Source: Hormiphora californensis
Lineage: Eukaryota > Animalia > Ctenophora
NCBI GenBank assembly: GCA_020137815.1
Contig: CM035350.1
Location: 2,170,001-2,234,000, forward strand
Length of the DNA: 64,000 nt
Reading direction: 5' to 3'
Positions 12,801 through 18,800 of the stretch are shown one piece after another. Numbering within the stretch: position 1 is the first letter of the stretch; every line of letters starts with the position of its first letter. The notes under the pieces were generated by a model. That model had not been told where the DNA came from, did no database searches, and worked only from the letters and a program-made list of their open reading frames with translations. The position numbers were made by a program, and so were the translations under genes.

Positions 12801-15800
12801 CGGTTATAACTCCTTGACCATAACTCCGATCGACCTAAAATTTTGAATGCCCACTAATCTAGTGATCCTCTATCAGCTGGTATCAAAATCTAAGCTCTAA
12901 GTGACCAGGAACTGGTATTATTAGTGCTAATTGGCGATAACGTCATAAATCACATAATTACGACTAATTAGTGAACCGGGGGTGGTAGAGAACTGTTGGA
13001 TGGTACTTTGGACTTTTTATAGAGTCCCTAATCATATCAGCAAGTCAAATCTAAAATTCCAGACCCAACTTCCCACAACCGACCCTACTAATAGGTAAGT
13101 CGTAAACCGGTGCATGGAAAACGAAACTAATTCTAGCGACTACTATAGTCACTAATTCTAGCGAATACCAGAAGTATTCTCAGAGCATTCACTTCAACTG
13201 CTCACTATGGTAGCTTATCGTTTACCACCTGGTGACTGATAATAACAAATTAAGCACCTGCTTTCGTTTACAAAGCGCCGAAACCAGGATTTAAAAGGGT
13301 TAAACTGTTTGAAGGTGGGGTCCATTATGTGTTCAACAACACTATTCGGAAAATATATTATTTAACTTAAACCATTTGTCACCTGGTTGCCCATTATAAC
13401 AACTCATCTACACAACTTCCAAAGGTGGTAGCTAATTAACTCTTTATCCAATTATCCATATAATTAGCTTCATTACCAAAACTACATAATTTGGGATTGA
13501 TCAGTCATCACATGCAGTTAGTGTGTTCATTTGACATTTCTTCTTCTGTAATTCATGCATCCTCTGCTAATGGTACTACTTGGGAAAGGCAGAGAGAAAA
13601 AGAGAGAGAGATGGAGGGGATATAGAGAGAGAGAGAGAGAGAGAGAGAGAGAGAGAGAGAGAGAGAGAGAGAGAGAGAGAGAGAAGGAGGGGATAGAGAG
13701 GGAGAGAGAGAGAGAGAGAGAGAAAGGTATAAAAAGGGAGAATGATATAATTCCTGCAGTTGATACAAAAGTTACCGTATCTGGACTACCAATTACAACT
13801 CAACTTGGGGTCCTTCAATTATAGAAGTCTGGCGCAGTTGCAGTAGTATTCTCTGTGCCATGCTAGTATTTGACACATGTGCAACAACTAAATTTAGAAT
13901 CGTACCCACTCTCGTGTGTGTCCTGCTCCCTCTAAACCATAGGTCCGTGGTTCTCTCTCTCTCTCTCTCTCTCTCTCTCTCTCTCTCTCTCTCTCTCTCT
14001 CTCTCTCTCTCTCTCTCTCTCTCTCTCTCTCTCTCTCTCTCTCCCCCTCTCTCTCTCTCTCTCTCTCCCTCTCTCTCTCTGTGAGCTAAAACCGAACTAT
14101 TACTATCGACATGTGGGATGAAAATTTGCACCTTTACACATGCACCATTGCAGAGCTGTTGTAATTCTTCTATGTGCATCTATCAGTTTTTAAATAAAAA
14201 GTGTCACTAAGGCGTGCCTTTTCTTGTATTGGCCCGGCCCTGCTTGCACCGCAGCACCGTTTCCAGTACTTCTCTCCAGGAAGATCTCTGTGTCGTGTTG
14301 CAATGTTACACTGCAGCACATGTACCTACTACACATGATGTGTGTCTTTGATTAAGTTATTTGCTTGCCCGGTTGGTGAGATGGCAGTATGGTAGACAAC
14401 TCCTCAGTTCTAGCTATCTTCAAACGTCAATATACCGCCTTAGTTCCATGGTTTACACTTTCACATCAACTGACGGGAGAGGAATATTGTTGTTGCTGGT
14501 GCAGTTGTTGTAGTTGTTCCTGATACAAATCCAGAATCCTGCTGTGAAGTAGAGGAGACACCTTGTGTTGAACTGATAATAAGGAGACTCGAGATCTCTG
14601 AAGAGGGAGCTGACCATGAACTCAGACACTAAGAAGCTCCTGGTAGCGGCACTGTTGTCACTCCTTCTGGTGCTATGTTTTGCTGCCCTAGTGGTCTTCC
14701 TCCTCCACCATCTGATACCCCGGGATAGTGACGTGAAGGGACAGCAGGAGACCCCAACTACAATTGTAATAGTTGTACCACCGGGGAAGGATGAGGATGA
14801 GGCCGAGATTGGGGAGATAGAGTACACCTACAAAGACTTTAGTAAGTTTGTGTGTGGTAACTGGCTATTGGTTTGGATTGACGCCAGAAGAGGAGGAGGG
14901 AGTGAGAATGAGAAGGAGTGAGAGAGAGAGAGAGAGAGAGTGAGAGGGAGAGAAAGAGAGAGAAGTGATGAGAGGAACTATCTCACATGTGTTATCCCTG
15001 TCTCTCCGTTTTCTCTATGTCTGGGCGTTATAGTTCAGCAGGATCAATTATATCTACTCTCTCAACTTCTATATTTTTCAGCTCATAGATTTTCTGACAG
15101 TTCTAACTGTCAATTCCTTCCCTCGACCTCTGGAGATTCTTAGTTGCCCAATTTCGTGAACTAACGCCTACATCTGTTTTCTCCCAACATTAATTAGAGA
15201 CCATGTTTCCAATACTACAGCTGTGCTATTGAGAACCCCCACAAGTACCAGTTACCGGCAACTACTACCAGTTGTATATCTCCCTCCCATTTAGTTAGAG
15301 CCTTTCTAAACGAGACAAAATCGCGTATGAGGCAGTTATAACTGGCAGTTATAACTGCCTCCTATAGTAGGTGGATACTCGTCTAGAACGATATTTCTAC
15401 TCTAACCGCCGGTTAGAGTTTGAACCATTACCGGCTACTATAACTGGCAGTTATAACTGCCTCTTATAGTAGGTAGATACTCGTCTAGAAAGGAAAAGGG
15501 GCTTCGTATGAGGCAGTTATAACTGCTATTACACGTGATAGCTGTCATGTGTGAAGAAAATATGATACGGGGGCATTGTGGAAACCTTACATTCACACGA
15601 TCACATGCATTAGCAGTTATACCTGCCTCATACGGCCTTTCTAGACGATGGTCTTATGAGGCAGTTATAGTAGCCGGTAAGAGTAGCCAGTTACTCGTTT
15701 AGAATGGTTTTACCTACCTACTATAGGAGGCAGTTATAACTGCCTCCTATAGGAGATTTTGTCTCGTTTAGAACAGCTCTTAGTACCATGTCTGGCAGGA

Positions 15801-18800
15801 GAGCATATCTGTTTTCCCTCTCATTATCCTGTCGGTGTTGCACTTCTCTCAACAGATCCTGTCTGCTCCGATTTGCAAGAGTCATTTTAACCATCCTGTT
15901 CTTTGTGTTGTTTCTCATTCCGGGTTATTTTGTTTATATTCGGTGGAAGAGAGATAATAATAACACCAGGGTGTCATCAGAGTACCCACTTGTTAGAGGT
16001 TAGAGCTGTAGTAGAGGTTGGAAGTCCTTTTCATAGCACCCACTATTTATATTGAGATACTACATAAATAACCAATGGGATCGGGTGAAATAGGCTAAGA
16101 ATTGATGTGGAAGATTGGTACCTACTGGTTTCTGTGTTTACCAGCTGTTTATTTCAGAGTGTGGTTGTTCAGAGAAAGGTTCAAAGGGGAAGCAGTGTGA
16201 TGTACTGACGGGACAGTGCCCCTGTAAACCCGGTTTTGCAGGACAACATTGTGACATCTGTACAGATGGACACTTTGGGTATCCTAACTGTGGAGGTAAG
16301 AGACAGAACTGGGCGAACCTCTTGTTTTTGTAGATCTCTTGTTTTTTATCATTTTGGCATCTCCCGGGATGAACGGAATTTACTGCGCAATTTAGTGTTA
16401 GTACCGCCAAACAACTGCAGTACTGACCTCCTCCGCAGGTTGCCAATGTGTGAGCGAGAACGTGAAGAGTGACTTGTGTGATGAGGAATCAGGACAATGC
16501 GACTGCAAGGACAACTTTGGGTAAGAGCTAATACCATTACGTTTGCATTTAATCGACTTCTATTTTCTAACATTTTAACCATAGTAACATATTCTTATTC
16601 AGTCTCAAATAAAACGACGAAACGTCTAACACAGTCTAACATTCTACTTCACTGTCTAGTGTCTAACACATGTGCTCATGTTTGCACGTGCCATCGGGGC
16701 ACCTGATGGTTCCTCCGGGACACACATCCAGAGGGGGCTGTACAGTGGGATACATCCAGCAGTAATCACACGTCTTCTTGCAGAATACCTCCTTGTAGAC
16801 CCTGTATTCACACGCCTCCTCCGTACACCACCCCTCCATCACATCCTTACAATCGGGGTCCGGTATCGGGTCAGGTCCGGGGTTCTGGTCAGGATCATAG
16901 TCAGACGGCGCTGTCTCCGGGTCTATATCAGCCACCCCCTGAACCACCGCAAGGGTAGGATAAACAACGTTCTTGTGCAGTCCACAGCCATCATGCCATC
17001 GTCCAAACTTAACGAACCCACCATCTCCCCAGTCCGCTCCCCAGCTGTTCTTCACCAGGTAGTACCTGAAGGCGTACCCGACCACTACCACAGCGTGGTT
17101 TGGTGCCCCTATACAAGTATTATCCTTGATCACTCCATCTTTGTAGTACTGGAAGGCACTAGTAACCTGGAACAGCGCTGTAGTCGGGGTGATTGTTAGG
17201 GCAGTGATGTGATCACTCTCACCACGGCTAACTTTAACATGCCCCGTTACCCGGGCAGATTGTAGGCCGTTAGGGACGTTAGACATGTCACACTTGCCCC
17301 TGTCTTCAGCCAAGTAGGGGTAGTTGAGGGTGTCTCCTCTGGGCATATTGGAACGCATTGATCGGCCAGCCCCCAGCGCATCCATTTCGGGCTTCATCCA
17401 CACATTCCAATAACTCCTGCTCTGCAAAGCTTTTCAGTTTCCCTCCAGTTCCCTTGTACCCTGCCTCAATGGCTGCTGCAGCTCCAAAGGTCCAGCAGCT
17501 GCCACATCGACCTTGGTTTTTGACCGGTGTAACGTATCCCTTCTCTACCCAGTTCACCGACTCCGGGAAAGGTCCATCCTGTGGTGTCATCACCTTGGTA
17601 ACAGGTGTCGTCACCATGGTAACATTGAGCCCCAGATACTGTCTCCGTTCTTCCTCAGTGAGGTCGGCAAAGAAATTCACCTCACTTCGCCAGGAGAGAC
17701 CCATGGAATTCTGGCCGGCCACAAATGCTGCAGATTTGCGGTACAGAGCGAATCGGAAGGATCTCTCGGAGGAACTGGTGTATTTGAGGGTCGAGGTAAA
17801 GGCAGAGAATTCATGTCTTAGATCTTCAGTTCTGACAATTCCTGTCAGGATCAATAGGAGGAGCAAGATCATTTTAGGCACCGAGTTAAAAATAGGACAC
17901 CATACGGTTTACAGAATACTATGGGGTCGTGGCAATTAGTTTAGCATCAGCTATTTTAGTCGCATTTTACTTGAGACTCACGTGTGTGTCAGATTTAGGA
18001 ACACGCATTCTATTATCCATTAACTCAGTTAGCACTTCTGAGGAGTACTATAACTGCTACGTAGTATAGCAATATGCTGTGAAAGTAGATTGTGGGCCTA
18101 GTAATCCAGTTTAGCCCCCCTCTCATAATCCAGTTTATAATCCTCCTCCGCAGAGGTCGGGATTGTGGAGAGTGTAAGGTTGGTTACTATGGCAACAGTG
18201 AAGAAGAAGAAGGACTGTCCTGTGATAGGGTGTGTGGCTGTGATATACAGGGATCAGAGGGCGAGGGGGAATGTAATGTCAACACAGGACAGTGCACGTA
18301 AGTAGTTTTGTAGCTCTATTTCTCTCTCTCTCTCTCTCTCTCTTTCTCTATCTCTCTCTCTCTCTCTCTCTCTCTCTCTCTCTCTTTCTCCCTCTCTCCC
18401 TCTCTCTCTTTCTCTCTCTCTATCTCTCTCTCACAGGTGCAAATTGGATATAACGGGTGAGAAGTGTGACAGGTGCGAGGAAGGCATGTTCAGGTTCCCA
18501 GCCTGTTACATGTGTGACTGTAATCCCACAGGTTCTCTCTCTACCAATTGTGAACCTGCCACTGGAGTCTGCACCTGCAAGGTATTAACCCATCACATCC
18601 CCCTCTTTCTTTCTCTCTGATTTCGTCCAAATTAGTTCCAAATTAGTTGATCATGAGACTCATATCGAACGTGGCAACACATGAAGTTGAACTTATTAGT
18701 TAAGTTCCAAAAGGTCCACAATTCTCTTCCTCCTTTTGACACAACCTCTATTCAGGAAGGGTATACTGGACCCAAATGTTCCGAGTGTTCCCCTACTTTC

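Follow-up and report, generated by a model that had tools for sequence, protein, structure and literature searches.

We report a candidate alternative first coding exon, here called exon A, which lies in an unusually long intron of a ctenophore (Hormiphora californensis) laminin alpha gene, in a stretch of 64,000 nucleotides (nt) of contig CM035350.1 (assembly GCA_020137815.1, positions 2,170,001 to 2,234,000 of the forward strand), which we call the window and to whose numbering all coordinates refer. Laminins are secreted trimers that are held at the cell by receptors. Exon A is probably a real and functional exon, and our leading reading, on which our confidence is evenly poised, is that it acts as an internal first exon, whose helix, predicted to escape cleavage, would fix a shortened laminin alpha chain to the membrane, the N-terminus facing the cytosol. 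That exon A gives rise to a short laminin of some kind, be it anchored or secreted, we consider likely.

The host gene is recognisable as a laminin from its domains: three of its exons match the Pfam EGF_laminin profile above the cutoff and two fall just below it, which makes up a tandem array of LE repeats, and its coiled coil matches Laminin_I (E 1.5e-6; 28.6 bits against a cutoff of 34.6, for a 216-residue piece) and Laminin_II (E 0.0075). Profile matches bear out the LE repeats and coiled coil that a first-pass annotation, made from the letters alone, had placed downstream of exon A. The intron in question (9852-16157) measures 6306 nt, where 21 of the 23 introns modelled up to 22082 have lengths of 44-324 nt. 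The laminin exon before it ends at 9851 in phase 1 and joins the exon at 16158, which is preceded by the phase-1 acceptor TTTCAG, in frame.

The coding part of exon A begins with the ATG at 14616, in the context ACCATG and behind in-frame stops that end at 14582, and its translation is reproduced as it was first given. The GTAAGT after 14841 in phase 1, the phase-1 acceptor at 16158 and the in-frame join between them are likewise all present. Its end is less settled: a donor does lie at 14841, but on a matrix built from 24 laminin donors the site after 14856 scores higher (8.5 vs 7.0), so that the exon may end there instead, with five added residues, one of them a cysteine, and again in frame with 16158. 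Frames of this kind are rare. The pattern of an ATG frame of at least 40 codons with a 19-residue window of Kyte-Doolittle hydropathy (KD) >=2.0 and a phase-1 donor occurs at only two loci in 82 kb of sequence (41 kb from the start of the window, each strand counted), and both lie in the 9852-16157 intron on the laminin strand. Exon A reaches a KD of 3.13, and simulated introns yielded such a frame in 0/300 cases at KD >=3.0, in 1/300 at 2.5 and in 8/300 at 2.0.

The codon usage of exon A was examined with a three-periodic model trained on the other genes of the window, the null being held-out, overlapping non-coding windows. Exon A scores 0.34-0.37, the highest of its six frames; at 0.34 it compares with a held-out null of -0.49 +/- 0.24, in which none of 336 windows scores as high, and it falls within the range of the known coding windows (mean 0.27, n=51). 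This test replaced an earlier synonymous-codon score, on which exon A stood above 801 of 805 null windows but a stop-riddled shifted frame scored higher. An antisense gene over exon A (minus frame 14453-14827, acceptor 14538) was considered and rejected, as over exon A the plus frame outscores those of the minus strand.

Protein searches with exon A found a sole relative, P0002 (1 of 676 candidates; 1 among the 50% representatives), a genomic read-through from an 877-base contig that is 72% identical to exon A. At the protein level of this two-sequence comparison 17 of 74 aligned codons differ, and the two one-codon indels balance each other without a frameshift, whereas the intron part 14965-15130 has two frameshifts in 55 codons. 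The 17 changes are mostly conservative, to a degree reached by only 1.2% of 10751 stop-free simulations; P0002 retains the uncharged helix, as did 604 of 20000 simulations of exon A change; and none of the 28 donor-spanning codons differs. On the strength of the pattern rarity, the codon periodicity and the comparison with P0002, exon A looks coding, in that it carries the statistical signature of coding DNA.

A further coding-like stretch lies beside the start of exon A. Positions 14474-14633 hold a three-periodic, stop-free run of 53 codons in another frame, which has no ATG and overlaps the start of exon A; the 50 codons preceding exon A have a periodicity of 0.19 on the plus and 0.30 on the minus strand (2/528 and 0/528 null windows as high), so that the antisense frame is the higher-scoring one, and a strong minus-strand acceptor is found at 14538.

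The likely partner of exon A is the laminin exon at 16158. The 14841^16158 join is open through five downstream exons (349 residues, no stops), the 14856^16158 join likewise keeps the frame, and between exon A and 16158 the plus strand has no further stop-free window that looks coding, in agreement with the earlier statement that no other partner exon is to be found. The sequence thus supports 16158 as the nearest in-frame coding partner of exon A. If exon A is coding, its join to laminin is probable on these sequence features, since the phases match, the codons at the donors are invariant, no other coding-like window precedes 16158 and the read-through stop is unshared.

Two explanations would keep exon A as a coding exon and give it another product. 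In the first, the hydrophobic stretch is a cleaved signal peptide and the product a secreted, mid-sized alpha chain lacking the LN and first globular domains. All the coding and splice evidence for exon A applies equally to such a chain, LAMA3A offers a precedent for the internal-promoter route, and cleavage sites that satisfy the (-3,-1) rule, the scan with which alone cleavage was assessed, follow residues 15 and 23 in both exon A and P0002. The nature of the helix speaks for an anchor instead. Its uncharged run of 23 residues (24 in P0002) is about twice the length of typical signal-peptide cores, and its best 19-residue insertion sum is -5.5 (-6.0 in P0002), against +4.3, +4.7 and +7.1 for three signal peptides encoded in the window; a fourth comparator, whose frame had been misread, was excluded. 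There is no polar c-region, and a chain cut after residue 23 would retain seven hydrophobic residues. AlphaFold predicts one continuous helix over residues 3-33 (block pLDDT, the predicted local distance difference test score, 81-93) followed by a disordered stalk, with a mean pLDDT of 67 from a two-sequence alignment. The net charge of the flanks is +1/+2 before the helix, where KK precedes it, and -1 after, so that exon A has the single N-terminal helix of ~18-25 residues with a positive N side by which type II anchors are known. The proposal that the hydrophobic run after KK fits a type II signal anchor therefore finds agreement in run length, hydrophobicity, flanking charge and predicted helix. 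A type II anchor is favoured over a cleaved signal peptide because the helix is longer and far more hydrophobic than the signal peptides of the window and has KK in front; given the join to laminin, these predictions make it probable that the helix acts as an anchor, and the secreted chain as a whole is an unlikely outcome, if still one to reckon with.

In the second, exon A is part of an independent nested gene on the same strand, or its frame continues to the stop at 14921, and the product is a single-pass membrane protein of ~100 residues with no link to laminin. In Hormiphora, nested genes that run parallel to their host are reported to be common (PMC8527503), and the laminin gene itself harbours several antisense nested genes. 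P0002 shares all 16 codons past the 14841 donor, splicing to a strong acceptor at 15082 would yield a 20-residue tail, and the coding-like stretch in another frame overlaps the start of exon A. Yet neither the read-through stop nor its frame is common to P0002 (101 vs 179 residues), 0/16 changes is unremarkable at the intron rate of about one change per 10 codons, codon periodicity fades past ~14867, and both donors fit the phase of 16158. We judge this gene somewhat less probable again than the secreted chain. A quite improbable reading makes exon A either a chance frame or what is left of a coding sequence, decayed or untranscribed; it draws on a difference from P0002 at least as large as that of the intron and on the lack of any protein family or distant homologue in the searches made (best Atlas score 0.80), and to it the codon periodicity, the frame-keeping indels, the conservative changes, the retained helix and the 0/300 simulated introns are opposed.

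Several observations weigh against an anchored laminin, among them the shared cleavage site after residue 23 and the parallel nested genes already mentioned. No transcript or protein crossing the junction of exon A and 16158 appeared in the protein searches. The conservation tests rest on n=2, at the protein level and without P0002 DNA, P0002 having been picked by similarity, and exon A diverges from this relative more than the intron does (17/74 vs 7/71, p=0.044; against 11/80 with the microsatellite edge included, p=0.15), the helix and stalk being the parts that diverge fast. Both donors of exon A are mid-range, with 7 of the 24 laminin donors scoring <7.0, and there are 11 ATGs in 14100-14615, seven of them downstream of the 14280 acceptor. 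Finally, the assembly has a frame break in the G run at 19257-19261 of a laminin exon, on account of which an assembly error near the exon A ATG, hiding a longer N-terminus, may also be considered.

Scans for the exon A locus gave 0/565 pattern matches in metagenome contigs and 0/600 in prokaryote genomes, and neither read-through frame has an exact match in the protein collection. Searches with the LE exon at 16158 gave, among proteins, a single candidate, which was a moth laminin gamma, and among loci 35 matches of 41-61% identity. In none of the 35 does the match-bearing frame have a hydrophobic window of KD >=2.0, and none looks like an orthologous exon.

Splice sites upstream of exon A suggest how its transcript might begin. 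The acceptor ending before 14280 and the donor after 13094 follow one another as a spliced 5' end would require, and a score >=12 is rare, being reached by 8 of the 3118 AG sites of the plus strand that were not used for training. From their positions, the former is a candidate spliced-leader or 5' untranslated region acceptor for exon A, and the latter a candidate end of a non-coding first exon. Trans-spliced leaders are frequent on ctenophore mRNAs, with 56% of Iso-Seq reads carrying one according to PMC8527503.

In the anchored-chain reading, an internal transcript, possibly leader-spliced at 14280, would begin translation at the ATG at 14616, and exon A would be spliced from 14841 or 14856 onto 16158. 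Seven residues would remain in the cytosol, the helix would span the membrane, and the acidic stalk would hold out the LE repeats, one globular domain, more LE repeats, the coiled coil and the LG domains. With its coiled coil intact, such an alpha chain would remain able to assemble with beta and gamma chains. The three-arm model of laminin polymerisation requires the LN domains of the short arms; as the alpha LN domain is missing, the short chain would tether rather than polymerise via its own short arm. It might thus serve as a receptor-independent tether of the basement membrane, or as a cell-surface ligand for the integrins of facing cells.

The closest known parallel to this arrangement, as a mechanism, is SN-agrin (TM-agrin) of vertebrates, which is a closer analogue than LAMA3A. 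SN-agrin is, like laminins, a basement-membrane protein with LE and LG domains, and its gene has the same order of long-form exons, short-form first exon and common exons (PMC2189804). The short form is cell-associated; PMC2189804 itself noted no predicted transmembrane domain, and the type II orientation with a cytoplasmic N-terminus is stated in PMC2172957, citing Neumann 2001. The likeness is one of mechanism only, for Pfam scans of 27 pieces found LE, coiled-coil and LG-type matches for the host and none to a follistatin or agrin family. Unlike agrin, the host is a ctenophore laminin alpha with a coiled coil, whose anchored form would need to trimerise, and the sequence of exon A matches P0002 only.

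LAMA3A, to which exon A had first been likened, is a short alpha chain made from an internal promoter, with its own first coding exon in an intron of the long form (PMC12347647), and the anatomy of exon A fits an internal first exon of this kind. The likeness does not extend to the site of joining: alpha3A retains a single cysteine-rich domain (PMC2139892), whereas exon A would join not just before the last LE block but one LE block and one globular domain earlier. A mid-sized alpha chain of the kind exon A would give was concluded to be absent in mouse (PMC2139892).

The fate of the product would also differ, as alpha3A is secreted and the exon A product carries a predicted anchor instead. 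The type II transmembrane collagens XIII, XVII, XXIII and XXV combine an N-terminal signal anchor with a trimeric ectodomain; they are homotrimers of collagen helices encoded by dedicated genes, where here an alternative exon of a heterotrimer subunit is concerned. No membrane-anchored laminin chain was found in the literature searched, from which subscription papers were mostly absent, and the Hormiphora annotation (PMC8527503) may already hold the isoform; the excerpt of a bioRxiv paper on ctenophore mesoglea has nothing on laminin isoforms.

Table 1. Coordinates of exon A, its splice sites and the host laminin alpha gene in the window
Feature	Position	Strand	Description
Host laminin alpha gene	at least from 6932 to ~46000	+	cysteine-poor globular exons, LE exons, coiled coil, weakly matching LG exons
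Long-form upstream exons	6932..9851	+	~480 cysteine-poor codons; putative large L4a/IVb-like region; phase 1 at the end of its last exon
Strongest donor of the intron	13095..13100	+	score 11.7; just behind the foldback element
Strongest acceptor of the intron	14260..14279	+	score 15.7, rank 1/493 AG sites; 336 nt upstream of the ATG
Exon A, coding part (candidate alternative first coding exon)	14616..14841	+	75 codons + 1 base
Predicted type II signal anchor	14637..14705	+	23 uncharged residues (8-30) behind KK
Acidic stalk	14706..14841	+	45 residues with predicted disorder; variable over the first 33 codons, invariant over the final 12
Phase-1 donor GTAAGT	14842..14847	+	score 7.0, rank 8/369 intron GT sites
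Alternative phase-1 donor GTAACT	14857..14862	+	score 8.5, rank 3/369
Exon B (second ATG frame; probably chance)	15788..15998	+	20-residue hydrophobic stretch; its phase-1 donor fits the frame of 16158
First shared laminin exon, one LE domain	16158..16295	+	Pfam EGF_laminin E 2.7e-12; phase-1 acceptor
Downstream laminin exons	16439..22731	+	LE repeats on both sides of a putative L4b-like globular insert, then the first part of the coiled coil
End of coiled coil and LG-type exons	24970..46058	+	partial model only; weak LG matches at 41537-41779

The remainder of the host gene is described by weaker signals. Its first eight exons from 6932 are open over 331 residues with seven cysteines, and five scanned pieces of the 6932..9851 globular region gave no Pfam match; a further cysteine-poor insert, which interrupts the LE array, has no Pfam match and only a weak match to perlecan (E 0.28). 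At the other end, the matches at 41537-41779 are weak (Pfam Laminin_G_2, E 0.092; laminin alpha2 chains, E 0.35-0.53), and four other pieces gave no LG match in profile and similarity scans. The labels alpha3/5 and L4 come from domain order and PMC2139892, with no profile match or tree behind them; that source describes an enlarged first globular domain in alpha5, like the long cysteine-poor region before exon 16158 here. Signal peptide, LN domain and first LE block were not found in 640-7500 of the window, and the missing LN region presumably lies upstream of the window. In the coiled coil, exon 22084-22731 differs at 13 of 216 codons from P0003, a gene model of Pleurobrachia bachei (94% identity), which marks the host gene as that of a Pleurobrachia-like ctenophore; the exon at 22907-23060 (+) appears garbled relative to P0003 when read by eye, and the window past ~42 kb looks rich in errors.

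Exon B was considered as a second anchored first exon and rejected. It encodes a furin-like motif and a glycosylation sequon, and an acceptor (score 9.1) would fall 8 nt before its ATG if the adjacent element were removed. Its codon periodicity of -0.27 is non-coding-like, with 58 of 336 null windows as high and none of 51 coding windows as low, and it has no usable Atlas match. Exon B is probably a chance frame, and we think it improbable that it is a real exon.

The same intron contains a foldback element (12150-13090) with 459-nt arms that are 97% complementary, flanked on both sides by ATA, and a 482-nt element (15298-15779) resembling a miniature inverted-repeat transposable element, which has terminal inverted repeats, is flanked by TTA at either end, and whose ends have no second copy in the window. 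A nested gene with a signal peptide lies at ~10060-11110 (-); its largest exon has no Pfam match. At 16663-17872 (-) there is a nested protease of the papain family with an I29 propeptide and a cysteine-rich C-terminal extension, which falls in two overlapping frames, where the frame break may be an assembly error. One RNA run, too sparse to bear on the exon A junction, matched this cathepsin in short pieces of <95% identity and the laminin stretch 18440-25270 in a single 74-base piece. Within a later laminin intron are three similar genes for secreted proteins with Thr/Pro-rich linkers (29984-31006, 33511-34732 and 36222-37542, all -), of which the two scanned gave no Pfam match. A long tandem array (34876-36012) has a period of ~21 nt, and its translations show open frames on both strands. 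Two more genes, at 1-642 (+) and ~1100-4530 (-), lie upstream of the first laminin exon found; with the LN region falling outside the window, an earlier intron of the laminin gene may be their host.

Ctenophores are reported to be without dystroglycan and dystrophin (PMC4582122) and to have, of the basement-membrane toolkit, only collagen IV and laminin (PMC5395295). According to the latter paper, a basement membrane is formed in Pleurobrachia and Beroe but not in Mnemiopsis, and its authors postulate an unknown component that aids assembly. If the anchored form is real, a laminin would supply the membrane anchor itself, in animals whose basement membrane is reportedly built without dystroglycan, nidogen and perlecan, and the solution seen in SN-agrin would have evolved separately in a laminin of an early-branching animal lineage. 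A membrane-anchored laminin is a testable candidate for part of the anchorage of the basement membrane in these animals.

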